Shown here in pieces: positions 3,706 to 42,946 of a stretch of DNA of 50,999 nt. Numbering within the stretch: position 1 is the stretch's first letter; every line of letters begins with the position of its first letter. The position numbers and the translations under genes were made by a program. The stretch comes from a bacterium. Its GTDB lineage: Bacteria; UBP4; UBA4092; JAOAEQ01. The notes under the pieces are model-generated. The model searched no databases and was not told the DNA's origin. It worked only from the letters and a program-made list of their open reading frames with translations. Where the stretch lies: positions 1 to 50,999 of the forward strand of contig JBHGBB010000003.1 in NCBI GenBank assembly GCA_041946755.1, given 5' to 3'.

Positions 3706-4176
3706 TTATTGTTCTCCCAGGTCTTCCCAATATACTATTGGATTTGGAGTTTTGGAAATATCTACTAATGCAAAAACGGTCCGAGTCGCCCGAATTTCTT
3801 TTTTAACCTGAATCATGCCTTTTGCCGTCACCTGATAGAGATTACCGGAAGCAATCCCATATTTCGATATCGCATCAGTCCAAGTCGAATTTGCTGGCGA
3901 CCACTCAGCGGTATAAACCAAGCTTATATCGCTCGAAATCGGTTCCATTTTCGGAACCAACTCTCCTTCAATTTTTCCAGCTGCGGGTTTGCTCTTGATT
4001 GAGCCAACCGCTGCTTCAACTCCGGATTTAGCTAAATAGAGGGTTTGTAATCCCTCTTTAGTTTGATTTCCCCGCATTAAACTGAAATGCGCATATCCGG
4101 AATAGGATAACGCGACAATAAAGACTATCGCTACCAGACTTAAAATAATTATAAGAACATAACCACGTTGTTGCAT
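3706..4176 (-). CDS. Short PilX/GspK-like minor (pseudo)pilin
   Basis: QRG|YVLII prepilin site without E5, YLAKSGVEAA motif, C-terminal YQVTAKG..IVYWED. Confidence 0.7.
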   Translation of the reverse strand: MQQRGYVLIIILSLVAIVFIVALSYSGYAHFSLMRGNQTKEGLQTLYLAKSGVEAAVGSIKSKPAAGKIEGELVPKMEPISSDISLVYTAEWSPANSTWTDAISKYGIASGNLYQVTAKGMIQVKKEIRATRTVFALVDISKTPNPIVYWEDLGEQ

Positions 4177-16378: not shown

Positions 16379-18712
16379 ATGAAGCATCGTACCCACATCA
16401 TCCTCCAAGGGGTAGTTCAAGGGGTCGGATATCGACCATTCATCCATCGGCTGGCAACCCAATTCGAGGTTACCGGCTGGGTGATGAATACTACCCAAGG
16501 GTTGGTTATCGAGGCGGAAGCAACCCCGGATATTTTAAACCAGTTTATCCACCAAGTTACTACTACCCACCCTCCTTTAGCGCAAGTTGAACAGATTATC
16601 CAAACCGAAATCCCAATAGTTAACGACCAGACTTTTATTGTCCATCCGAGCGAAAAAGCTACCGAACGAGCGGTGCATATCCCCGCAGATATTGCGGTTT
16701 GCGATGAGTGTCTATCCGAGATGCTCAATCCTACCGACCGCAGGTATCGATATCCCTTTATTAATTGCGTTAACTGCGGCGCTCGGTTCACCATCATTCG
16801 CGATATCCCCTATGACCGGAAACAGACCACCATGCAGAAATTTAAACTATGCCCGGAATGCGATACTGAATTCCATAATCTATCGCATCGGAGATATCAT
16901 ACTCAGCCGAATTGCTGTTCGGTTTGCGGACCACACCTAGAATTATTAGATATCAATGGGAAAAAAGTTAGAAGCCAAGACCCGATTGCGGATACCATAG
17001 CTAGATTAGCGCACGGTGAAATTATGGCAATTAAAGGGATCGGCGGATTTCATCTGGTTTGCGATGCCGGAAATAATCAAGCAGTTTTAAAACTCCGGGA
17101 ACGGAAGCATCGGGAAGCGAAACCTTTTGCAATTATGAGTAACGATATTGCTGCTATCCGAGCCTATTGCGAAATATCTGCTGCAGAGGAGGAATTATTA
17201 ATCAGCCCGCAGCGACCGATAGTGTTACTAAGGAAGAAAGGTCCATCAACCGGTATCGCAGAATCGGTCGCCCCGAATTTGAACAATCTCGGGGTAATGC
17301 TGCCGTATGCTCCACTACATCATTTATTATTTCAGAACGCGCCATATCTGGCGTTAGTTATGACCAGCGGTAACCTGAGCGATGAACCGATTGTGATGGA
17401 TAATGCAGTTGCACTAGAAACCTTCCGTGGAATGGTTGATAGCTATTTAATGCATAACCGGGATATCTATAACCGCTGCGATGATTCGATTGCGATGGTG
17501 GTTGATAACGAGCCGATCATTCTCCGGCGGGCACGGGGTTATACTCCCCTTCCGATAAAATTACCCAACCCGGTACCGGATATTCTTGGCTGCGGAAGCG
17601 AATTAAAAAATACCTTCTGTTTAACGAAAAACCAGTTTGCGTTTATCAGCCAGCATATCGGGGATTTGAAAACCGCTGAAGCGTATACCTTCTATCAGGA
17701 AACTATAACTCGATTTGAGAAATTGTTCCGCATCAAACCGGAGATTATCGCGTTCGACTTACATCCGAATTATTTATCGACTCAATATGCGGTCGATAGG
17801 ATATCCAACGCTAAGAAACCGATTCAAGGGATTCAAGTTCAGCATCATCATGCGCATATCGCCAGCTGTATGGCGGAAAATAAGGTTAATGAAAAGGTGA
17901 TCGGTATTGCCATGGATGGAACCGGATATGGGACTGACGGCAATATCTGGGGTTGCGAATTCTTGGTTGCCGATCAAGCATCGTTTGACCGGGCTGGGCA
18001 TCTGGCATATACTCCGTTACCGGGAGGAGATATTGCCGCAGTTGAAACATGGCGGATGGCGATTAGCTATCTCTATTCGATATATCAGGCTGAAATGACC
18101 AAACTACCTCTACCGCTATTGAAAGAGGTTGATGAAGAGAAACTAAACCTAATCTTTCGGATAATTCAGAAGAAAATCAATGCACCGCTATGTTCCAGCG
18201 CCGGGAGATTATTCGATGCGGTCAGTGCGTTACTCGGAATATGCTTGGAATCGAATTATGAAGCGCAAGCGGCAATCGAATTAGAAATGATAGCTGATGC
18301 ATCGGTCACCGGGCATTATGGATTTGATATTTCGGAAGTAGAAGGAAAACAGGTTATCGACTGCAAACAAACCATAGTTGATATAATCGGAGATTTAAGG
18401 AAGAAGATCGATAAATCGATAATTTCCGGGAAGTTTCATAATACCATAGTAGCGTTTTCGATCGAGATGAGCAAAAAGATTCGGGAACAGACCGGATTGA
18501 ATAGTATCGCATTAAGTGGCGGGTCGTTCCAGAATCGGTTAATATTATCTCGGCTGAATAAAGGATTAAAACAAGCCGGATTTAAAGTTTATACGCATCA
18601 TATCATTCCACCAAACGATGCCTGTATCTCGTTTGGACAGGTTATGGTAGCAGAAAATCAAATTCGAAATTCGAATATCGAATATCGAAACAAAAAGATA
18701 ATGAAACAATAA
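16379..18712 (+). CDS. hypF: Carbamoyltransferase HypF
   Basis: GVVQGVGYRPF acylphosphatase domain, CxxC Zn fingers, KGIGGFHL, QHHHAH, DGTGYG, ND..IS.GQ. Confidence 0.98.
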   Translation: MKHRTHIILQGVVQGVGYRPFIHRLATQFEVTGWVMNTTQGLVIEAEATPDILNQFIHQVTTTHPPLAQVEQIIQTEIPIVNDQTFIVHPSEKATERAVHIPADIAVCDECLSEMLNPTDRRYRYPFINCVNCGARFTIIRDIPYDRKQTTMQKFKLCPECDTEFHNLSHRRYHTQPNCCSVCGPHLELLDINGKKVRSQDPIADTIARLAHGEIMAIKGIGGFHLVCDAGNNQAVLKLRERKHREAKPFAIMSNDIAAIRAYCEISAAEEELLISPQRPIVLLRKKGPSTGIAESVAPNLNNLGVMLPYAPLHHLLFQNAPYLALVMTSGNLSDEPIVMDNAVALETFRGMVDSYLMHNRDIYNRCDDSIAMVVDNEPIILRRARGYTPLPIKLPNPVPDILGCGSELKNTFCLTKNQFAFISQHIGDLKTAEAYTFYQETITRFEKLFRIKPEIIAFDLHPNYLSTQYAVDRISNAKKPIQGIQVQHHHAHIASCMAENKVNEKVIGIAMDGTGYGTDGNIWGCEFLVADQASFDRAGHLAYTPLPGGDIAAVETWRMAISYLYSIYQAEMTKLPLPLLKEVDEEKLNLIFRIIQKKINAPLCSSAGRLFDAVSALLGICLESNYEAQAAIELEMIADASVTGHYGFDISEVEGKQVIDCKQTIVDIIGDLRKKIDKSIISGKFHNTIVAFSIEMSKKIREQTGLNSIALSGGSFQNRLILSRLNKGLKQAGFKVYTHHIIPPNDACISFGQVMVAENQIRNSNIEYRNKKIMKQ

Positions 18713-23953: not shown

Positions 23954-26900
23954 ATGAAAAACTTTACTATTAGTATGCTGATTGTAGCGATAGTTTTATT
24001 GAGTATGACTAGTGTAGCCCCGGTAATAGCTCAAGGATTAATTATAACCACTGAACCGATTCCGGGAATCCCGGTATCTCCGGCGCAAATCGCGCCTGCG
24101 GATATCAAACCCAACTCGAAATCAATATTAGCGTTAGGGAATTTAACTCCCTATGCTCCTACCGGGTGGTCGGATAAAATTGTGGTAACCAGTAGTGTAT
24201 CGAATTTAACGACTGATGGCACCGTGTATGCCAATCAAACGAGTTATATCAGCTGGGCAGTAATCAATAATGGTACCGGCAATATCCCGTCGGCAATCCG
24301 GTTTTATGTCTATCTATATATCAACAGTAATTTTACTACCGGTTGGTACGGTGATGGCCTATATGCCGGGTATTATCTTTATGTCACCGGATATCCTTAT
24401 GTATTTACCACCATTGGTAATAATACCCTTCAGATAGAAGCTGATCCTACCGATGCTGTAATTGAAAGTAACGAAACGGATAATAGTTATAGCCGGGTAA
24501 AATCGGTTAGTGGCGGCGGACCGAGCATTCGCATCAGTCCAACCAAACTCGATTTCGTTAATATCGCTAGTTTCATCGGAACCTCGAGTCAAACCGAGCC
24601 GGAAACAAAAACCGTGAATGCGCCAACCGGTACTGAAGACTTAATTGGTCAAGTTGCGCCATTAAATCCGGCGTTTGAACAATATCAAAAAGACCTGGCG
24701 ATGGGAAACATTAACTATTTCACGGCAAATGGATTTCAGTTAGGACATATTCCAGCACCATTAGACTTATCGCATCTGAAAGTTAAATCGGCAGTATCGG
24801 AATCGGTATTAGCGCTACCGAGCGCCTATGATTGCCGGACTGCAGGTAAAGTTACCGCAGTAAGAAATCAAGGTAGTGCCGGAAGTTGTTGGGCACATGC
24901 GACCTATGGTTCGATGGAATCATGTTTGCTCCCGGGAGCGACCTGGGATTTCTCGGAAAATAATATGAAGAATCTGCTGAGTTCTGCGTATCCACAAGGA
25001 TATGACCGGGCAGCATCAGCCGGCGGAAACTGTTTTATGGCAACCGCTTATCTCACCCGATGGACAGGTCCGATTTTAGAGACCGATGATCCTTATAACG
25101 CCACCAGCGGAACTTCGCCAACCGATAAACCGGTCCAGAAACATATTCAAAGTGTTTATTACCCACCATCGCGAACCGGGGCAACAGATAATGCTACCCT
25201 AAAACAACTGATTTTAAGTTATGGTGGTATTGATAGCGGCATGTATTGGGATGATGCTTGTTATAATGCTACCAACTATGCTTATTATTATAGTGGGGCT
25301 TCGAGCGATAATCACGATATCACTGTTGTCGGCTGGGATGATAATTTTTCGGCAAGTAAATTCAGTCCAGCCGCACCGGGGAACGGTGCATTTTTAATTA
25401 AAAACAGCTGGGGTACTTCTTGGGGACAGAATGGATTTTTCTATCTGTCATATTATGATAGTAATATTGGGATAACCAACGCCCAATTCCGATATACCGA
25501 AGCAACAACTAATTATACCCGGGTATATCAATATGACCCATATGGTTGGATTAATTCTTACGGATATGGAGGAACCACCGGCTGGTTTGCAAATATATTC
25601 ACTGCTTTAGGAGAAGAAAATATCGCTGCCGTTGGCTGGTATGCTGGAGCACCGAATACCGTATATGAGATTCGGGTATATAAAACCCCGGATTCTGGCC
25701 CGATAAATACCGGGGGTGCCGCATTAACTAAAACCGGGACTGCTACCGAATCAGGTTTCGTTACCATCTCACTTGGTACCACGGTAACCGTCTCTTCCGG
25801 GCAGCGATTTTCAGTCATGGTCAAAGCAACCACCCCGAATTATAACTATCCGATACCTATCGAATATCCGGTATCAAATTATTGCAGTAAAGCGCGCGGG
25901 AATCCGGGAGAAAGCTATATAAGTGGTAACGGAACTACCTGGTCGGATATCAGTTCAAAATTCACGGCGAATTCGAATGTCTGTTTGAAGGCGTATGCGA
26001 AGTCGGTTGGGCAATCTTCAAACTCCCAGAAGTTTACGGTGTATAATGACGGAAGTGGCACCTTATCGGTCACCAATATAAGTAAAACTAATAATAAATC
26101 TTGGATTACGTCAATTGCACCAACTTCGTTTAGTGTGCCGGCTGCAGGGTCGCAACAAATCACCGTAACTGTCTCTGCCTCTGGATTATCGGTAGCAAAG
26201 GATACCGAATTATTAAAAATCTGGTCGGATGATACCTTACATAATCCTTACTCCGGTCCGACAGTTACTATCTCCGGAACTCCGAAAATATCAACCATGA
26301 ATAGTTATGGCCAGTTTTCTACTGCTGGCGATACCACTAAATGGTATTTCCAAGTTTATGCTGACGGCAGTGGTCCCGGCAGCTTATCCTGGCTCCCGAA
26401 TTTTGCCGGGCAAACAGGAGTTATTCGATTCCAGCAAGCAGCCGGAGAGAAAGCGAAATTAAGCCAGACGTTTTCAGTCCCCAGTGCGGGATGGTATACC
26501 GCTAAAGCAAAAGTCGCAACTGATATAGTACTTACTGCAAAACAACAAAAAGTCTACCTATATCTGCAAGAGATGAACTCCAGTAACGCGATTATCGCCT
26601 GTGCCAATGAAGTAGTCGCTTCTGGTGGCGGTGGATTTAGTAGTGCCAGCTCTTGGAAGAACCTTGAAATTTCATATTATGCCAGCGGAACCGGTTTGGC
26701 GGTACAGGTGGTCGGCATCAATCCCAGCGGTAGCGGAGTAGTTGGTAGGATATATTTTGATGATATTCTCGTTACCCCAACCGCACCTGAAGGATATACC
26801 GGCTCAAGTGTTACCATAAGCAATTCTAGTTTCACATCGAATACTGCCGGTTGGACGATAGAAGTCTATGCTGATGGTACCGGTCCCGGTACGTGGAGCT

Positions 26901-27384: not shown

Positions 27385-27414
27385 TTGACAGTAATCGCTA
27401 TCCTATGGTATTTT
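27385..27414 (+). promoter_or_regulatory. Putative sigma70 promoter for tRNA-Gly
   Basis: TTGACA-N18-TATTTT with TG extension. Confidence 0.5.
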
Positions 27415-27482
27415 AATAGCTGAAATATAGCAGAATCTGGCCGTTTAATCCCTTGTTATATTTAGTCTTACCTGTTCCGGAT

Positions 27483-30716: not shown

Positions 30717-31601
30717 TTAAACCTTCTTAACCCCGAACCGATCAAGTAATCGATCGAGTTCATCCAGGGTATGAAACTCTATTTCGATTTTACCTTGTTT
30801 CCCATGAACATATACCCTAACCTTGGTTCCCAGAGTTCGTTGTAATTGATCTTCTAGTGCAACAACTTCAGGTTTCGGTAAAGGTTTAGTTTTTTTAACG
30901 CTCGGTCCAGAAACCAGCTTCTTAACATAATCTTCTGTCTGCCGGACCGATAACTGATGATGGATAACGAACTGCGCCCCATCTTCTTGAGCTTTTATTG
31001 AAAGTAACGATAATAAAGCTCTTGCATGTCCCATTGATAATGTTCCACGTGAAACATTATTCTGGACCGATTCAGGTAACTGCAATAATCTCAATATATT
31101 AGCCACTGAAGACCGGTCCTGGCCGATTCGTTTAGCCACTTCTTCTTGAGTTAAACTGAATTGATCGATTAATCGCTGGAATCCTTTAGCCTTTTCGATC
31201 GGATTCAAATCATCCCGCTGTAGGTTCTCAATCAGTGCTAATTCTAGCGATTCTTCATCATCAACCTCTTTAACAATCGCTGGAATAATCACTAAGTTCA
31301 GCTTTAATGCTGCTCGATATCGCCGTTCTCCGGCAATAAGTTCATAACCTCCATCAACTTTCCGAACATGTATTGGGCTAATTACCCCCTTTTCAGCAAT
31401 AGATGCCGTTAATTCAGATAAAGATTCTTCAGAGAAATCAGAGCGCGGCTGTAATCGATTCGGTTTAATACTTGAAATCGGCAGGTTAACTAATCCGGTA
31501 GATTTCGTTTCAGTTTCAATAACACTAGTAAAATCAGTCTTTTTATCGGTAGGAATTAATGCTGATAATCCTTTACCCAACCCTTGTTTCTTCACGTTCA
31601 A
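30717..31601 (-). CDS. parB: Chromosome partitioning protein ParB/Spo0J (start possibly GTG at 31595)
   Basis: GLGKGLSALI, QPR, AGERRYRA, ENLQRDDL, HARALL. Confidence 0.97.
   Translation of the reverse strand: MNVKKQGLGKGLSALIPTDKKTDFTSVIETETKSTGLVNLPISSIKPNRLQPRSDFSEESLSELTASIAEKGVISPIHVRKVDGGYELIAGERRYRAALKLNLVIIPAIVKEVDDEESLELALIENLQRDDLNPIEKAKGFQRLIDQFSLTQEEVAKRIGQDRSSVANILRLLQLPESVQNNVSRGTLSMGHARALLSLLSIKAQEDGAQFVIHHQLSVRQTEDYVKKLVSGPSVKKTKPLPKPEVVALEDQLQRTLGTKVRVYVHGKQGKIEIEFHTLDELDRLLDRFGVKKV
31041..31056. promoter_or_regulatory. parS site inside parB
   Basis: TGTTCCACGTGAAACA. Confidence 0.9.
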
Positions 31602-32349
31602 TCACCTCTTGAGTTAATTTTATATAAGCTTCTGCTCCGGAAGAACGAAAATCATATATAATTATCGGTTTTCCGAATCCCGGTGCTTCGCTTAATCGAA
31701 TCGATCGGGGAATAACGGTATTAAACACCTGAGAGCTGAAATGTTTCTTAACATCATCGGCGACCTGTGCGGCTAGATTGGTTCGACCATCATACATGGT
31801 TAATACAATCCCTAAAAAAGATAATTCAGGGTTTAATGAGGTTTTAACCAGATCTATAGTAGCTAATAACTTAGCGAATCCTTCTAACGCATAATATTCG
31901 CATTGTAACGGTACCAGGATTTTATCTGCAGCAACCAGAGCATCAACGGTTAATAATCCTAATGAAGGCGGAGTATCGATTAAAATATAATCATACACGT
32001 CGCGCAGGGGATTAATCTTTTCCCGGAATAGGTATTCGCGACGATCAACATCCACCAATTCGATTTGCGCTCCATTAAGCTGGTCGTTTGAAGGAATTAA
32101 ATCAAGAAGAGGTATAATTGTCTTAATTATTAGCTCGGTTGGAGCAATAGAATTTATCAGAAGATCATAAACGCTTTTCTCGATATTATTTTTTTCGATA
32201 CCTAATCCGCTAGTAGCGTTAGCCTGCGGATCTATATCAATCAATAGTGTCTTTTTACCAGCCGCAGCAAGGCATGCAGCTAGATTAACCGCAGTGGTAG
32301 TCTTTCCGACACCACCTTTTTGATTAGCAATAGCTATAATTCGGGGCAT
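31573..32349 (-). CDS. parA: Chromosome partitioning ATPase ParA/Soj
   Basis: NQKGGVGKTTT, DIDPQANAT, IDTPPSLG, QCEYYALEG, RLSEAP. Confidence 0.98.
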   Translation of the reverse strand: MPRIIAIANQKGGVGKTTTAVNLAACLAAAGKKTLLIDIDPQANATSGLGIEKNNIEKSVYDLLINSIAPTELIIKTIIPLLDLIPSNDQLNGAQIELVDVDRREYLFREKINPLRDVYDYILIDTPPSLGLLTVDALVAADKILVPLQCEYYALEGFAKLLATIDLVKTSLNPELSFLGIVLTMYDGRTNLAAQVADDVKKHFSSQVFNTVIPRSIRLSEAPGFGKPIIIYDFRSSGAEAYIKLTQEVIEREETRVG

Positions 32350-32390
32350 AAATTCAAAAAATCAGAACTCTATTATCTGCAACCAACTAA

Positions 32391-32406
32391 TGTTCCACGT
32401 GAAACA
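32391..32406. promoter_or_regulatory. parS site upstream of parA
   Basis: TGTTCCACGTGAAACA. Confidence 0.9.
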
Positions 32407-32566
32407 TTTTTGATTAAATATGCTGATAAATGAGCAAATAACTATAAAATAAAATTTAAGATAACATAGGATAACAAATTTGTCTAGTAGAAATAATTAA
32501 AATTAATAAATATATTAGATTCTAGCGATTGGAGTAGCAGGATAGAGTAAATAAAAATAAAAAAGA

Positions 32567-32665
32567 AAAGCTCGGTATCTGACAGAGGGATTTGAGGGGA
32601 ACACGCTCTATTTGAAAAGATTTCGTACCCGGCAAAGGTACTTTTTTTCAGTCAGGCCGAGCTTT
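32567..32665 (-). ncRNA. Putative structured RNA or extended terminator
   Basis: Closing stems aaagctcgg/ccgagcttt and ctgac/gtcag, internal gtacc..ggtac hairpin, followed by U-tract on minus strand. Confidence 0.3.
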
Positions 32666-32711
32666 ATTGCAGCAATATAATTATATTATTGAAATGAATA
32701 CTTTCTAACTT

Positions 32712-32900
32712 TTAATTGACTAATCTAACGTGGAGGATGCTAGTCCCATTTTTATAGCAATGCCCTTTTTTAACGCCACCGAATCCTTTGGCTTTTTGCA
32801 TTGCTTCGAGAATATTATTTGCTCGAATGAGAAGGCGCCGCTCAATAAAACGTCCAGAACCAACATGCCCTCCCTTAACCAAACAATGATATATATGCAA
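32712..32900 (-). CDS. Small basic hypothetical protein (62 aa, GGHVG motif)
   Basis: TTG start at 32900 behind GAAGGGGG RBS and a sigma54 promoter. Confidence 0.7.
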   Translation of the reverse strand: MHIYHCLVKGGHVGSGRFIERRLLIRANNILEAMQKAKGFGGVKKGHCYKNGTSILHVRLVN

Positions 32901-32929
32901 ACTCTCACCCCCTTCGGTAACAATTATAA

Positions 32930-32946
32930 AGCAATAATCATACCAA
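32930..32946 (-). promoter_or_regulatory. Sigma54 -24/-12 promoter
   Basis: TTGGTATGATTATTGCT, GG-N10-GC, matching TGGYAY-N5-TTGCW. Confidence 0.8.
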
Positions 32947-32986
32947 ATAGCATATAAAACAACAAAATATATCATAACACTAATAT

Positions 32987-33081
32987 TATCAGTTGTTTAT
33001 AAAAATATACCAATTAAGTGTATAAATGGTTAACAACAATATGTGTAAGATAATTAGACAGTACCGTTTAGTTTATATACA
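32987..33081. promoter_or_regulatory. IHF-like site and tandem enhancer (UAS) boxes
   Basis: TATCAGTTGTTTA (32987-32999) fits WATCARN4TTR; TGT-N11-ACA at 33019-33035 and 33044-33060, CGT-N11-ACA at 33065-33081. Confidence 0.6.
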
Positions 33082-33121
33082 ATTCTGTTTAATTTAATTT
33101 TGATTGGAATAAAGAAAGTAA

Positions 33122-35092
33122 TTAACCAAAAGAAGAAGAGATTTCAGGTTTATTGAGATTGAATTTCTTGATTTTTTCGTAAAGGGTAGTTCGGGTAAGA
33201 CCCAATTGGGTAGCGGTTTTGCTAATATTCCACCCATTAATATTTAAAGCATGTAGAATATATTTTTTCTCGATTTCTTCTAAAGGAAGAATACGAGACA
33301 TCGTTTGCGGTTCATTCATAATATCCGATATCGATTCTCCGGCATCTAAGGCATGCAAATCCGCTGGTTCAATAATGTTCGTAGTGGCCATAACTACAAT
33401 CCGCTCAATCATATTTTCCAGTTCTCGAACATTACCAGGCCAATCTTTCGATCGGAGAATTTCCATCGTTTCGGGAGATAATGTAATCGCACCAGCCTTA
33501 TCATATTTACGCAAAAAATGCGCCACTAAATATGAAATATCTTCTGGTCGCTCTCGTAAGGAAGGCATATGAATCGGAATAACATTAAGTCGATAAAATA
33601 AATCTTCCCGGAATCGTTTTTCGCTAATCGCAAGATGTAAATCCTGGTTGGTGGCGGCAATAATCCGAACATCAACTTTAATGGTCTGATTACCACCTAC
33701 TCGTTCGAATTCCCGCTCCTGAAGAACGCGAAGTAGTTTCAGTTGCAGTACCGGGCTCATATCTCCTATTTCTTCCAAAAAAATCGTGCCGTGATTAGCC
33801 GCTTCAAATCGACCAATTCTTCGCGCAGTCGCACCGGTAAACGCCCCTTTTTCGTGCCCGAATAATTCCGATTCCAATAATGTTTCCGGAATCGCATTGC
33901 AATTGACCACAATAAACGGTTGGTTTTTCCGGGGACTATTCTGATGGATGGTTTTAGCAATTAAGGTTTTCCCGGTACCATTTTCCCCTGTAATAAGCAC
34001 TGTTGAATCGATCGCTGCGGCCAACCGTGCTTTCCGAACCACTTCCTTCATTTTCGAGCTACTTCCAATAATTCTCAATCCGCTTGCAGTAGTATCTACT
34101 ATGGAACTGGTCGGCGAAATACCGGGTTTAACCATATCGAAAGTAAATGAAGCACCTTCCATAAAACTAATAAATTCGCTAAATTCTTTGGTTGTTGGAG
34201 CTTCTTGGTCTTTAGCAGTATTAGCGAACCCATGTTTTGCATAAATCAAACCCAGATTATAAATTGCATTTGCATTTCCCGGTTCTCTTCGAATAATCTC
34301 ATTAAACTGCTCGATTGCTTTTTGGATTTGACCGGATTTATAATAAGCAATTCCTAAATTGTTGCGTGTCGATAAGGTATCCAAAACGCTCGGAGTCAAC
34401 TCGATTACCCGTAAATACGCACCAATTGCTTTTTCAAAATCATTGATTCCCAGATAACAATCACCTAATGCCTGATATGACGCTACCAAATATGGGTTTA
34501 ACCGGATCGATTCTTGTAAATCGACGATAGCTTCTTTCGGAACCGCATTTCGGGATCGGGCTAATCCTAAATAAAAATAAATATCTGCAATGAATAAATT
34601 TTGTTGCGGATAGAACAAACCAAGATAATATTTGTTCGGTTTATATTCATTTTTTAATTCTAACGCTGCTTTAAATTTATCAATCGCCTGATTAACCTCA
34701 CCCCGATATAGGGAGATTAAACCAAGATTAAAATAAAGATCAACCGATTTATAGTTTAGTTTTTCCGCCTGTTGATATGCTTGATACGCCTGATGATGTT
34801 TTCCGGAATGCAGATAACAATGACCGAGATCACAAAATAGATGCGGGTCGTTCATCTCAGGATAGTCTTTCAGAATTTTCTCATATAACTGGGTGGCTTT
34901 TTCATAATCACCCAGCATAAACAGATGCTGCGCTTGCTGATATGTTGAAGAGGTTAGAATTGAAATCGGCTTCACTGCGGTCCGCGGCCTAGATTCGGTG
35001 GTTTTCTCTGGCGTTGATGAAATTACTTGCCCGCAGTTCGAGCAAAACCGGCTGGTTTTAGAAACACGTCTCCCGCAAGATTGACAAACCAA
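33122..35092 (-). CDS. Sigma54-dependent activator with N-terminal Zn ribbon and TPR sensor
   Basis: CQSC..FCSNCG, multiple TPRs, [40 protein letters not shown], Fis HTH; RBS AGGAGG before TTG. Confidence 0.93.
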
Positions 35093-35141
35093 ATACTTTC
35101 ACCTCCTTTCTATAAAAGCAGCTATACCATTCCACCGAAAA

Positions 35142-35486
35142 TTATCCTGAATTCGGTTTCGGCGGCTGCGTTTCAGGTTGTATTTGTTCTTTTAACCAGC
35201 GGATTCGTTCTTCAGCAATATATGCGAATTTGGGATATTTCTCGATAAGCGATCGATAAATCTTTTCCGCATCTTGGTATAAATGCTGATGTTCCAGTTC
35301 ATATCCTTTTCGGAATTCCTTTTCAAATCGGACCAATTCTTCGCGATCTTGTTCGTTCAATGATTTTAGGAGATAACCAAGACCACCTAGGGTAGATGCG
35401 GCAAGAAATCCTATAAAATATGGCGGAAATGCTAAAGAAAGTAATAGAAAACCGACTGCGGCTAAACCGTATTCTTCTTTACGCAT
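35142..35486 (-). CDS. Small membrane protein with TPR-like C-terminal helix pair
   Basis: Two TM segments then AEKIYRSLIEKYP; start likely MRKEEY. Confidence 0.6.
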   Translation of the reverse strand: MRKEEYGLAAVGFLLLSLAFPPYFIGFLAASTLGGLGYLLKSLNEQDREELVRFEKEFRKGYELEHQHLYQDAEKIYRSLIEKYPKFAYIAEERIRWLKEQIQPETQPPKPNSG

Positions 35487-35573
35487 ACATTTTAATCGGT
35501 TTATGAAATACTGTCCCAAGCAAAATAAATTATTCTTTTTTGTTTAAGACGGCTATTTCAAACTACTAACCAT

Positions 35574-37553
35574 TTATTTAGTTGTATCAATACTCGGTAA
35601 AGCGGTCGATTCTGGTGTAGTAACTGTGGCATCACTGCTGGTTGTTTCAGCTTTTCCTTCTTCAGTCGGTTCTGCTTGAGACTCCATTAACATTTGATAT
35701 GCTTCCGGATGAATTGCAGCTAACGCCTCTCTGGTTCCCGTAACGATATGCGGAGTCATAAACAGCAATAAGTTTCGTTTCTCATGTTTCGAATCTTTCG
35801 AACTAAATAACACCGGTCCAAGAATCGGAATTTTATCTAAAATAGGAATACTTGATCCTGACTTGTTTTTACTTTGCGTAACCAAACCACCGATAACCAC
35901 GGTTTGGTTGTTCCGCACCTGGATTTTGGTATCCGCTTCACTTTTGGTGGTTTTAACTCCGGTATAACTGGTCCCACCAGCTTCCAAAGTAACCGAATCA
36001 GCGGAAGTATTTGATATTTTTACTTCCATATCGATTACCCCATCTTCATTGATATGCGGTTTAACAGATAACTGAACACCATAATCCTGGCTAACCTGCG
36101 AATAGTATTGGCTATACGTACTCGTACTCGTTGCCGGCTGAGTTACCACCGTGGTATATGGCAAAGTACCGCCGATGATAATCGATGCTTTTTCGTCATT
36201 TTTAATCAAAATTCGCGGGGAAGCGAGAATATCCGTATCGCCGGTAGAAGCATTCGGAATTTTCGCCGTTGCAGAAAGTGACCCGGTAATAAAACTGGTA
36301 TTAGTGTTGAAAAAATTGCGTACCTGCTGTTCCCAAGAACTACCTCCGGGTAATGGAATGGTGAAGTTTGAAGATGGAGTTGCGCCCGTTGTTGTTCCGG
36401 TTGAATCAGTCGACCCGCCGGTACCGGAAATATTAAACGCCAGCCCATAATTCCAGTTTATACCTAACGAAACTGATTTCGAATAATCCATATCGACTAT
36501 TTCCGCTTCGATATATACCAATTTATCCGGAGCGTCCAGTGCAGCAACAACCTTCTTTATTTTTTCAATTCGACTGGGAATATCGTCGATAATCAACCGA
36601 TTATTTCGTTTATCAACCTGAGAATAACCTTTTTTACTTAATAAATCTTTAATTTTGGTTCCTACATCTTCGGCTTTAGCATAGTTGATATTAAATACTT
36701 CGAGTTGCGTATTAATATCCAATTGTTTAACCAATTCCCGCATTTTAGCGACTGAAGATTCGACATCGGTGACGACAATAGTATTTAATCGCGAATCAAC
36801 GTCTATTTTCCCTTTCGGGCTTTTTGAACTTTCCAGCTTTTTAGCGACATCATCTGGATCTGCGAATTTGAGGGCAAATACTTCCGTTACCACGGGTATA
36901 TCGATATTAGCAATCATGGCATCAATTTTCGCTAAACTTTCCGGAGTATCGGTGATAAACAATTGGTTAGTCCGGTCATCCCGCGCGATTTTCCCAGCAG
37001 TCGATAATAGTGCAGCGATTGAATTCTGGACATCAGCTGCGTTCGCATACTGAATTTGATAAGTTTTGGTAATTACCAATTCTTTCTGCTTCTCTTGATA
37101 TTCCGGTACCGTCATAATTGTAATATTATTATCTTCCCGCATATATTTCCAGCTATTCGGTCCGGTTATAGCATCTAGTGCTTGTTCTAAGGTTGCAGCA
37201 GTTAAGGCTAAGCTGACTTTATTCCCCTTAACTCCCTTGCTTACGGTGATATTTACTCCATATCGCTTAGACATCGTACCGACAAGATTATCAATTATAG
37301 TATCGGTTAAGGTTACCGTCCATGTAATTTCTTGCCCCACCCTTGTCGTAGGTGGCGGAACTTGATTCGGAATACCAATCGTTCCATTAGGACCCGTAGG
37401 AGCGGGAGCTACGAATGGCTGCATTGGAACAGGGCCTGGAATCGGAGTCGCCGGCTTTTCAGGATTTGGAGAAGGGATTGGTGCCGTCTCTTGAGCAAAA
37501 GTAATTGATACAAGAAAAAGAGCGATTAACAAACTTAAACGAAATGATTTCAT
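35574..37553 (-). CDS. Secretin (GspD/PilQ family)
   Basis: Signal peptide, three N domains (D.RTN.L), IEAEIV, LGINW, LASPRI, VVIGGL, IPILDKIPILG.LF, FMTPHIV. Confidence 0.95.
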   Translation of the reverse strand: MKSFRLSLLIALFLVSITFAQETAPIPSPNPEKPATPIPGPVPMQPFVAPAPTGPNGTIGIPNQVPPPTTRVGQEITWTVTLTDTIIDNLVGTMSKRYGVNITVSKGVKGNKVSLALTAATLEQALDAITGPNSWKYMREDNNITIMTVPEYQEKQKELVITKTYQIQYANAADVQNSIAALLSTAGKIARDDRTNQLFITDTPESLAKIDAMIANIDIPVVTEVFALKFADPDDVAKKLESSKSPKGKIDVDSRLNTIVVTDVESSVAKMRELVKQLDINTQLEVFNINYAKAEDVGTKIKDLLSKKGYSQVDKRNNRLIIDDIPSRIEKIKKVVAALDAPDKLVYIEAEIVDMDYSKSVSLGINWNYGLAFNISGTGGSTDSTGTTTGATPSSNFTIPLPGGSSWEQQVRNFFNTNTSFITGSLSATAKIPNASTGDTDILASPRILIKNDEKASIIIGGTLPYTTVVTQPATSTSTYSQYYSQVSQDYGVQLSVKPHINEDGVIDMEVKISNTSADSVTLEAGGTSYTGVKTTKSEADTKIQVRNNQTVVIGGLVTQSKNKSGSSIPILDKIPILGPVLFSSKDSKHEKRNLLLFMTPHIVTGTREALAAIHPEAYQMLMESQAEPTEEGKAETTSSDATVTTPESTALPSIDTTK

Positions 37554-42070: not shown

Positions 42071-42946
42071 TTAACTCGAGATTGCTGCCGGAATTTGAGT
42101 AACCACAATAAATTCATGAATTATCGGCTTTTTCCCTTCCCGTTCTCGAATCGAAAATGTAACCTCGATTGCATCCGGTAAAAGGTCTGGATAAATCCGA
42201 ATCGGGACGGTTCGTTTCGTAGTCAGTTCTATTTCATCGGTTTGTTCTCGTGGATGCCGATATTTATCGATTCGAGAATCCCAATCTTCAACCCAAACCC
42301 ATTTGTCTTCTTTCATATACCCAAACCGAATTCTAAACCCAACAACATTATCTGCAATTTCATCAACTGAAGCGACTCGACTCGATGCTGGAGAAGAGAG
42401 ATCGGCTCGTTCCCGATAAAGATTGGTCCCTTCAAGGTAATATCGAATCGCAAAAACCTGCTCGCGGAGTAACGATTGATGAACTACCGGATTCTCTCGA
42501 ACACAATAGAATGAGACTTCAGCGGTGTTCCCGGAGAAAGGATATGGATTGCGTGCATATGAGCTTTCGTCGATAACTATGGTATCTTCACTATAAGAAG
42601 TATCTTCGGTATCCTGGCTTGGCGGGGGTGGCGGAACATCATATGCTGTCTCTTCAATTCCGCAAATAGACCGGAAATCGGGTTGCATGGTATCTGCTAC
42701 TGCCCGAGAAGCGACATAAACCGTTTTAACTGAAGTTCCGCTGCGATATACCGCTATCCCGGTTCGAAATGTAGTATACACCGCAGCGATTACCATCGTG
42801 AAAATCAATACTCCTAGAATTATTTCGAGAAGAGTGAATCCTGCATGAGAAATGCCAAATGTCCAATCCCGAACAGATGTTTGTTTGGCACTTACGGCGT
42901 TGAATCTAGCGCTGCGTATTTTATTTCTTATTAATAGTGATTTCAT
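42071..42946 (-). CDS. GspJ-like minor pseudopilin
   Basis: AG|FTLLEI, WVEDW..LPDAIEV. Confidence 0.85.
   Translation of the reverse strand: MKSLLIRNKIRSARFNAVSAKQTSVRDWTFGISHAGFTLLEIILGVLIFTMVIAAVYTTFRTGIAVYRSGTSVKTVYVASRAVADTMQPDFRSICGIEETAYDVPPPPPSQDTEDTSYSEDTIVIDESSYARNPYPFSGNTAEVSFYCVRENPVVHQSLLREQVFAIRYYLEGTNLYRERADLSSPASSRVASVDEIADNVVGFRIRFGYMKEDKWVWVEDWDSRIDKYRHPREQTDEIELTTKRTVPIRIYPDLLPDAIEVTFSIREREGKKPIIHEFIVVTQIPAAISS

Follow-up and report, generated by a model that had tools for sequence, protein, structure and literature searches.

Activators of sigma-54 RNA polymerase are textbook signal integrators, and their known input domains are receivers, GAF, PAS, V4R, PRD and similar modules. 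In the Psp system of Escherichia coli, the activator PspF is held by PspA, together with the membrane proteins PspB and PspC. Other activators are paired with a small RNA (sRNA), as in LuxO-Qrr, GlrR-GlmY, CbrB-CrcZ and the NtrC-dependent sRNAs, and dual-function RNAs such as SgrS/SgrT, RNAIII/hld and SR1/SR1P encode a small protein and also act by base-pairing. Sigma-54-dependent sRNAs are well known, among them Qrr, GlmY/GlmZ, NfeR1, NcS25 and the Campylobacter jejuni sRNAs; papers on activator-sRNA pairs include PMC10162802, PMC3045617 and PMC10746234. Here we describe a sigma-54 locus from an uncultured soil bacterium of the phylum UBP4 (assembly GCA_041946755.1, contig JBHGBB010000003.1, positions 1 to 50,999; this whole stretch of 50,999 nucleotides is called the window). 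The minus strand holds, in order, the gene of a sigma-54 activator, a set of enhancer dyads, an IHF-like site (itself listed on the plus strand), a -24/-12 promoter, a ribosome-binding site (RBS), a 62-codon open reading frame (ORF) and a 3' hairpin. An initial annotation, made from the sequence, had proposed an undescribed circuit. Judged by titles and abstract openings, our literature searches found no description of it and no sigma-54 activator with a TPR input domain, and the locus represents a real, conserved and apparently undescribed sigma-54 cassette.

The locus resembles Psp in its logic only: a receiver-less sigma-54 activator would be controlled in trans by a membrane-tied partner, and a dedicated local promoter has an enhancer and an IHF-type site. 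Unlike PspF, the activator carries its own zinc (Zn) ribbon and TPR domain. Its candidate partner, for which we only propose binding, is a 114-residue protein with two transmembrane (TM) helices and without a Pfam or NCBIfam family, and the output is a microprotein or an RNA rather than a membrane-protecting protein of the PspA type. As in the activator-sRNA pairs, the main or only local target appears to be a small transcript with a post-transcriptional role. However, the activators of those pairs are kinase-fed response regulators, whereas the present activator carries a Zn ribbon and TPR repeats, and the transcript described here also encodes a conserved protein. Like the dual-function RNAs, it would be a short transcript with a small ORF and a separate structured region able to pair with mRNAs, but here the pairing role is suggested by loop composition and one conserved complement of 13 nucleotides (nt).

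Results

The activator, promoter and microprotein gene are adjacent in all five genomes of the phylum

The initial annotation had outlined a sigma-54 module of activator, boxes, IHF site, promoter, RBS and small ORF, and each of these elements was located (Table 1). It had left the presence of rpoN to be confirmed, and this gene was found in the source genome, G000 (PF04552, 200.7 bits, G000:C338, open frame of 527 residues). The whole phylum is represented by five genomes in our collection (G000 to G004). In all five, a sigma-54 activator with TPR repeats is encoded directly upstream of the microprotein gene on the same strand, and the order of activator, promoter and microprotein gene is the same, which bears out the conserved gene neighbourhood that the annotation had proposed as a check.

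The remaining neighbours vary. G000 and G001 have secretin and type II secretion system-like genes, and the neighbours in G002-G004 are glycosidase, DUF975, LarC-type and enolase-type genes and a C25 peptidase gene. These comparisons support the view that the three elements form a single conserved unit, and the chain leading from activator through promoter to microprotein appears well supported. The annotation had also stated that the activator follows the secretin operon. A secretin gene (35574-37553) does lie upstream in G000, but of the five genomes only G000 and G001, its closest relative, show this tie, and the gene of the 114-residue membrane protein, which the annotation did not mention, stands in between. 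Because the flanking genes differ between genomes, the secretin link is not conserved; a functional tie to the secretin operon was rejected on the grounds that the synteny is confined to G000 and G001 and the other three genomes have unrelated neighbours. A scan of metagenome contigs for the wider locus matched 101 stretches, none of which was confirmed.

Table 1. Features of the sigma-54 locus and sites complementary to its 3' loop. Positions are those of the window unless a genome and contig are named.
Feature	Position	Strand	Basis
Small membrane protein, 114 residues, two TM helices; proposed activator partner/sensor	35142..35486	-	synteny, alignment, AlphaFold2
Sigma-54 enhancer-binding protein, 656 residues: Zn ribbon, TPR, AAA+ with GAFTGA, Fis-type helix-turn-helix	33122..35092	-	Pfam domains, alignments
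Enhancer box 1, imperfect 17-bp dyad TGT-N11-ACG, start -136 from T of promoter TGG	33065..33081	-	pattern count
Enhancer box 2, TGT-N11-ACA, start -115	33044..33060	-	pattern count
Enhancer box 3, TGT-N11-ACA, start -90	33019..33035	-	pattern count
IHF-like site WATCAR-N4-TTR, between enhancer and promoter	32987..32999	+	pattern match
Sigma-54 -24/-12 promoter TGGTATGATTATTGC (TGGTAT-N5-TTGC); GG 32943-32944, GC 32931-32932	32931..32945	-	pattern, five-genome conservation
RBS GGGGGTGA, strong, at fitting distance from TTG	32905..32912	-	sequence
Microprotein gene, 62 codons, TTG start at 32900	32712..32900	-	homologues, pN/pS, AlphaFold2
3' hairpin and U-run; stem GCUCGG.CUGAC / GUCAG...CCGAGC, small inner hairpin, CU-rich loop	32555..32662	-	fold, five-genome comparison
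GGGAUUUGAGGGG site	G000:C338:8220-8232	-	exact complement
GGGAUUUGAGGGG site	G001:C56:89857-89869		exact complement
GGGAUUUGAGGGG site (contig end)	G000:C126:6367-6379		exact complement

The activator joins a Zn ribbon and TPR repeats to a sigma-54 activation domain

Pfam matched the activator to Sigma54_activat (PF00158, residues 341-508, 248 bits), AAA_lid_14 and HTH_8 (PF02954, residues 604-644, 56 bits). TPR repeats cover about residues 48-290, and residues 3-22 match Zn_Ribbon_1 with 24.9 bits against a cut-off of 25. The annotation had seen no receiver, GAF or PAS domain, only a Zn ribbon and TPRs, and no receiver, GAF or PAS family occurred among the best 25 of the 43 Pfam families matched. 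Walker A (GENGTGK) and GAFTGA are both present in the alignment of activators, and all four Zn-ribbon cysteines are invariant across 17 aligned homologues. NCBIfam matches were restricted to the AAA+ and helix-turn-helix part, from about residue 335 on, and all 25 of those listed fell below their cut-offs. Named equivalogs (NifA, AtoC, NtrC, PspF, ZraR and others) likewise did not reach theirs; the best was NifA, with 388 bits against 529 over the AAA+ part only. The features tested as defining an enhancer-binding protein (an AAA+ domain with GAFTGA, a Fis-type helix-turn-helix and rpoN in the genome) are all present, and we assign the predicted protein to this class.

A search with the N-terminal 335 residues gave 203 matches with E <= 1e-5. 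Among the best 120 of these, 16 also carry the sigma-54 domain, and all 16 come from metagenome-assembled genomes (MAGs) or metagenomes and have generic names.

Paired 17-bp dyads stand at fixed distances from the promoter

The consensus of sigma-54 promoters is TGGCAC-N5-TTGCW, and by eye TGGTATGATTATTGC agrees with it at 13 of 15 positions. From the usual promoter geometry we predict that transcription starts near 32919, about 12 nt after the GC. The pattern TGGYAY-N5-WWGC occurs four times in the window against 1.19 expected, and 4 of 100 shuffles reach this count. Three further loose matches in the window lie at 24217-24231 (+), 27406-27420 (+) and 42843-42857 (-). A TGG[CT]AT-N5-[TA][TA]GC site lies between the activator and microprotein genes in 5/5 genomes of the phylum, and GG-N10-GC is kept in these five and in 2/2 loci from Sumerlaeota.

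The annotation had described three boxes of the TGT-N11-ACA type upstream of the promoter. Two are perfect, and the third is the imperfect TGT-N11-ACG dyad. Perfect TGT-N11-ACA occurs six times in the window, close to the 6.6 expected, and two of the six fall inside 42 bp here. We counted YGT-N11-ACR (17 bp) within 220 bp upstream of the promoter at 18 loci, made up of the five genomes of the phylum and 13 loci in which homologous activators occur in genomes mostly labelled candidate division FCPU426. The latter were obtained through one second-tier activator relative (P0103), which brought in 72 loci; 16 of these (L017-L032) were matches with 73-100% identity, 15 of them spanning the whole protein, and L026, at a contig edge, was excluded. 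At least one dyad was present in 18/18 loci and at least two in 15/18, for a total of 34 boxes, and shuffled sequence gave an expectation of about 0.06-0.17 boxes per locus. The box starts are fixed: they lie 21 bp from each other, at -135/-114, in the genomes of this phylum and 29-30 bp from each other, at about -119/-90, in those of the FCPU426 type; the 21-bp spacing between box 1 and box 2 of G000 is equal to that of the box pairs in G001 and G003. These sites and their conservation support a common enhancer type in two phyla, to which the activator would bind.

The upstream activator sequence of NifA is TGT-N10-ACA. It is alike in lying about 100 bp before the promoter and in being a TGT...ACA dyad for a sigma-54 activator with a Fis-type helix-turn-helix, but its spacer is N10, whereas every box that we counted has N11. 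An IHF-like site occupies a similar place in three of the five genomes (G000, G001 and G002). G000 has three DNABII genes, whose best NCBIfam models are IHF subunits, all under the cut-off.

G000 has 10 strong matches to Sigma54_activat, and one may ask whether the activator has its true targets elsewhere, for example among secretin or pilus genes, and the microprotein promoter is served by another of the roughly ten activators, the adjacency being coincidental. The microprotein promoter of Sumerlaeota, which stands apart from the TPR activator and is preceded by other dyads, would fit this explanation. However, the two genes stay adjacent in 5/5 genomes although their flanks vary, the secretin genes are not a constant neighbour, and the same dyad type follows homologous activators in the 13 FCPU426-type loci. 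In addition, among 124 loose promoter-pattern sites in G000, this one has three dyads, six have one and 117 have none. We consider a coincidental adjacency very unlikely. Since only this promoter of the 124 has more than one dyad, it is probably the sole direct target of the activator in G000.

The 62-codon frame encodes a conserved basic microprotein

All nine close candidate homologues of the microprotein matched with E <= 0.01, at identities down to 48%, and their alignment has 26 invariant columns that include CLVKGGHVGSG and GGVKKGH. The protein is encoded in 5/5 genomes of the phylum. A profile search of 1.84 billion representatives retrieved a family of 69 cluster representatives with E <= 1e-3, 18 of them with E <= 1e-10, and one came from a Sumerlaeaceae MAG. 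Between the five genomes, synonymous differences (pS 0.71-0.95) are saturated and non-synonymous differences (pN) are 0.09-0.39; G000 and G001 differ at 31 synonymous and 12 non-synonymous positions. A version of the ORF with an ATG start and 87 residues was rejected, as the added residues show no conservation and their codons would run into the promoter. Thus, the conservation of the small ORF that the annotation had anticipated is found both within the phylum and beyond it, with pN well under pS.

AlphaFold2 (41 sequences) predicted a strand-strand-helix-short helix-strand fold with a mean local confidence (pLDDT) of 94 and a pTM of 0.77, so the structure prediction that the annotation had suggested yields a confident model. 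The microprotein has an isoelectric point of 10.5 and a net charge of +9, and 41/41 aligned family members are net positive. NCBIfam and PHROGs gave no match. Pfam gave only a sub-threshold match to DUF4288 (PF14119; 13.4 bits, E 0.1, against a gathering cut-off of 27 bits). Weak DUF4288 matches occurred in 10/41 family members (best E 0.0035), and a distant link is possible; our literature search found nothing on DUF4288. The PDB sequence profile returned only L7Ae-type rows (E 0.2-0.8 over 22-38 residues), which we read as chance. With the predicted model, Foldseek found nothing with E <= 0.001 in the PDB (best E 0.14). BFVD likewise gave nothing at this level, and its best match (E 0.017) was an uncharacterised phage protein. 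In the ESM Atlas, unnamed phage clusters scored highest, with 0.88, which is under the 0.9 line. We conclude that the gene is real, under purifying selection and a member of a new unnamed family. Because of its charge and modelled fold, we propose that the microprotein most likely binds nucleic acid, probably RNA.

Two other accounts of this frame were weighed. In the first, the 62 codons are untranslated and the transcript is purely non-coding, as the output of the FCPU426 relatives is; the TTG start codon would agree with this. Against it stand the saturation of synonymous sites while amino acids are kept, the 26 invariant columns in homologues down to 48% identity, the pLDDT of 94, the 69 cluster representatives and the strong, well-placed RBS, and we regard it as hardly credible. 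In the second, the microprotein acts on RNA polymerase like Gp2 or epsilon (RpoY/YkzG), and not on RNA or ribosomes. Foldseek rows 4lk0_M and 4njc_A (E about 1) point in this direction, as does RpoY, the nearest named ESM Atlas cluster (0.84, a score class labelled as often due to chance). However, all of these scores lie in the range that the tools call non-specific, Pfam scans of the microprotein family gave no PF07288 match, and the net charge of +9 contrasts with Gp2, an acidic DNA mimic. Action on RNA polymerase therefore seems improbable to us, and nucleic-acid binding is the function that we favour.

A divergent second family member of the CCLVKMGH.GHKK type is encoded in G000 (L015, G000:C355:2228-2410) and G001 (L016, G001:C23:6716-6895). 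It lies after a large protein without a Pfam family (619 and 1110 residues), and no sigma-54 promoter was visible before the gene. In G001, a pilin-like gene with an N-methylation motif begins 25 nt downstream.

A small membrane protein is encoded directly before the activator

Alignment places the start of the 114-residue membrane protein at the methionine of MRKEE. Homologues 64-79% identical are encoded directly before the activator in 4/5 genomes of the phylum, and members of the family hold the same place in 16/16 FCPU426-type loci (hmmsearch E 1e-16 to 1e-20). Across 17 aligned members, FPPYF is invariant at the turn between the two hydrophobic helices, as is FE.EFR.GY in the helical domain that follows them. 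The AlphaFold2 model has five helices, with a pLDDT of 86-92 in the C-terminal part and 55-64 in the TM part; we propose that the C-terminal helical domain is cytoplasmic. Searches of Pfam and NCBIfam assigned the protein to no family.

In G003, the gene is absent from the whole 98%-complete genome. The activator of G003 has no Zn ribbon and an incomplete TPR domain, so the sole genome of the phylum without the membrane protein is also the sole one whose activator is without this ribbon. Both Sumerlaeota genomes tested (G005 and G006) encode the membrane protein. In G005, its gene stands directly before that of a Zn-ribbon activator, whose TPR domain was read by eye, with an overlap of a few bases; in G006 it lies at a contig end and its neighbour fell outside the comparison. 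The pair of membrane protein and activator thus appears to be kept in no fewer than three poorly known phyla, namely the present one, the FCPU426 type and Sumerlaeota. The annotation had inferred a circuit sensing a protein or peptide; we propose the two-TM protein as a better candidate partner of the activator than a free peptide.

The outputs of the proposed sensor pair appear to differ between lineages

The FCPU426-type cassette is alike in its membrane protein (31-37% identity), its activator (39-41% overall), its TGT-N11-ACA dyad type, its promoter type and its gene order. In 13/15 full-length loci, two TGT-N11-ACA dyads, a TGGCA[CT]-N5-TTGC promoter and a stretch of about 100 nt resembling an RNA gene follow the activator; in L021 and L023, no promoter was found within 420 nt after it. 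The stretch consists of a hairpin, a conserved single-stranded segment AAACGAAUCAAAA...CUCACCUCC and a terminator. CUCACCUCC is like an anti-Shine-Dalgarno (anti-SD) sequence, and we take it to resemble the 3' end of 16S rRNA. In L017, stops interrupt all three frames of the stretch, and the alignment of 13 loci has 17 predicted pairs, five of which show compensatory changes. No Rfam match was found at the RNA positions of L017, L019, L029 and L031. A microprotein homologue was found neither among 6046 ORF peptides of the 72 loci nor in three whole FCPU426-type genomes. Hence, unlike the cassette of the window, the FCPU426-type cassette has dyads 29-30 bp apart rather than 21 and would yield a non-coding RNA of about 100 nt, with CUCACCUCC before the terminator, and no microprotein. 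We read these loci as the same sensor pair driving a non-coding RNA.

About 60-90 nt after the terminator of this RNA, L017-L032 share a conserved TGTGTTATAGTGCC-like motif before the next gene, and this is probably that gene's own promoter. In L017, the next gene encodes, by eye, a glycosyltransferase-4/MraY-like membrane protein.

In 2/2 Sumerlaeota genomes, TGGTATAAATATTGC (TGGTAT-N5-TTGC) lies 30 nt before the RBS of the microprotein gene, and a CU-rich stretch follows the gene. The dyads upstream of this promoter are TTGC-N5-GCAA / ATTGCAAT and not TGT-N11-ACA (L102, about 3935-3995; L103, about 3910-3970, minus strand). Because the FCPU426-type pair drives an RNA, while the Sumerlaeota microprotein promoter lies apart from the activator, we regard the sensor pair and the sigma-54-driven outputs, whether RNA or microprotein, as probably linked but modular.

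The 3' hairpin has a pyrimidine loop in all five genomes

A hairpin with a U-run follows the microprotein gene in 5/5 genomes of the phylum, and its loop, 17-25 nt long, is almost pure pyrimidine. In G000, the CU-rich loop spans 32583-32602 and contains CCCCUCAAAUCCC, which it shares with the loop of G001; the loop sequence is conserved in these two only. The element is single copy in G000 by blastn, and Rfam 15 gave no match with E <= 1 on the hairpin in a search of 31500-36000. An exact 13-nt complement of the loop, GGGAUUUGAGGGG, is present in the leaders of orthologous 107-residue genes of G000 and G001 (Table 1). The product of this gene has no Pfam family, its protein identity between the two genomes is 68%, and the leader around GGGAUUUGAGGGG has diverged. 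A promoter-like TTGACA...TAAACT site lies upstream of the GGGAUUUGAGGGG leader.

We take the hairpin to act as a terminator, and it is at the same time a candidate regulatory RNA of the 3' untranslated region (3'UTR), a role that we rate as plausible. The main rival to a regulatory role accepts the cassette as real and takes the microprotein as its sole output, so that the hairpin is a plain terminator and the CU-rich loop incidental or a C-rich Rho-loading stretch. It draws on the U-run in 5/5 genomes and on a terminator scan that flags the inner part of the hairpin, on the lack of an Rfam family and of a match to the FCPU426 RNA model, and on a loop sequence conserved between G000 and G001 only. 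Moreover, long complementary targets are missing in G002-G004, where a search for 21-22-nt loop complements with up to three mismatches, shorter complements lying outside its range, found them only at the locus itself. Several observations are at odds with a plain terminator. Near-pure pyrimidine loops are found in all five genomes despite differing sequence, and a CU-rich stretch also follows the Sumerlaeota microprotein gene. Such hairpins are rare in G000, with a handful listed by a scan whose rule of a 7-bp perfect stem missed the present one. Homologous FCPU426 activators drive an RNA with a CUCACCUCC stretch, and in both G000 and G001 the leader of one orthologous gene has a perfect 13-nt complement of the loop. 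We therefore consider a plain terminator distinctly possible, though less likely than not, and continue to treat the hairpin as a candidate 3'UTR regulatory RNA. The annotation had suggested "possibly an sRNA" as a second output, and this gains support from the non-coding RNA that follows homologous activators in FCPU426-type loci and from the conserved hairpin with its CU-rich loop.

A sigma-70-like site, TAGAAA-16-TATAAT (10/12; 32680-32707, minus strand), lies between the microprotein stop and the 3' hairpin. With this site, the hairpin of G000 could also be transcribed alone; a corresponding site was not evident in G001. Elsewhere in G000, contig C297 (minus strand, about 18048-18135 of the reverse complement) contains TGGCATAACGATTGC, a sigma-54 promoter close to the consensus, and a hairpin with a U-run follows after about 30 nt. 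The 23-nt loop of this hairpin contains CACUCCCCCUUCAAACU and resembles that of the microprotein 3' hairpin. The element, downstream of a pheA-like gene, looks like a sigma-54-dependent sRNA of about 65 nt.

Discussion

The locus as a whole is probably best explained as a self-contained sigma-54 signalling cassette. The gene of a two-TM membrane protein immediately precedes that of a cytoplasmic activator, which has a Zn ribbon and TPR domain where a receiver would usually be. By a Psp-like logic, the cytoplasmic helical domain of the membrane protein would probably bind the TPR domain and restrain the activator until an envelope or membrane cue releases it. The freed activator would bind to the 17-bp dyads (TGT-N11-ACA) that lie in pairs 90-136 bp before the -24/-12 promoter, perhaps assisted by an IHF-like bend, and remodel sigma-54 RNA polymerase to give a transcript of roughly 360 nt. 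This transcript would yield the strongly basic 62-residue microprotein, most likely a nucleic-acid-binding protein, and the CU-rich loop of its terminator hairpin may work as a regulatory RNA of the 3'UTR by pairing with purine-rich leaders or Shine-Dalgarno (SD) sequences. In this chain, we infer how the signal is sensed, what the microprotein does and what part the RNA plays.

Some observations weigh against this explanation, beyond the missing long complements of the loop in G002-G004. Every genome compared is a MAG. Since the phylum's five genomes are related to one another, their common gene order does not amount to five independent observations. The -24 element is TGGTAT and not the consensus TGGCAC. 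G003 retains the pair of activator and microprotein without the membrane protein or the Zn ribbon; since the pair persists without it, the partner is not indispensable. In Sumerlaeota, the microprotein gene adjoins an S13 peptidase gene and not an activator, and given the other dyad type a different activator may serve there, or the specificity may have changed. Finally, when the five genomes of the phylum were searched with a covariance model built on the FCPU426 RNA, nothing but ordinary terminators came up (best E 0.003 per genome, two matches inspected); as the model misses the 3' element described here, homology of the two RNAs is unsupported.

A bolder extension of the cassette model would be a relay from membrane to translation. 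The FPPYF turn would sense the state of the envelope and release the activator, and one transcript would then strike translation initiation twice. The basic microprotein, which on this view has the shape of a ribosomal protein, would bind ribosomes or mRNA leaders, and the CU-rich 3' loop would mimic the anti-SD of 16S rRNA and pair with purine-rich leaders such as that with GGGAUUUGAGGGG before the conserved 107-residue gene. The non-coding anti-SD RNA of FCPU426 and the microprotein mRNA would be two forms of one ancestral output. Taken jointly, these propositions are speculative, and we think it rather doubtful that all of them hold.

The regulon of this activator apparently consists of one small transcript, which would make the cassette a simple setting in which to study the workings of such a sensor. 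A Zn-ribbon/TPR input with a dedicated, translationally linked two-TM protein would add a further class of sensor to those known for sigma-54 activators. The 62-residue protein defines an unnamed family with a confident predicted fold. Because homologous activators appear to drive either a non-coding anti-SD RNA or a coding RNA with a CU-rich 3' loop, these loci may offer a natural case for studying the interconversion of sRNA and microprotein mRNA.

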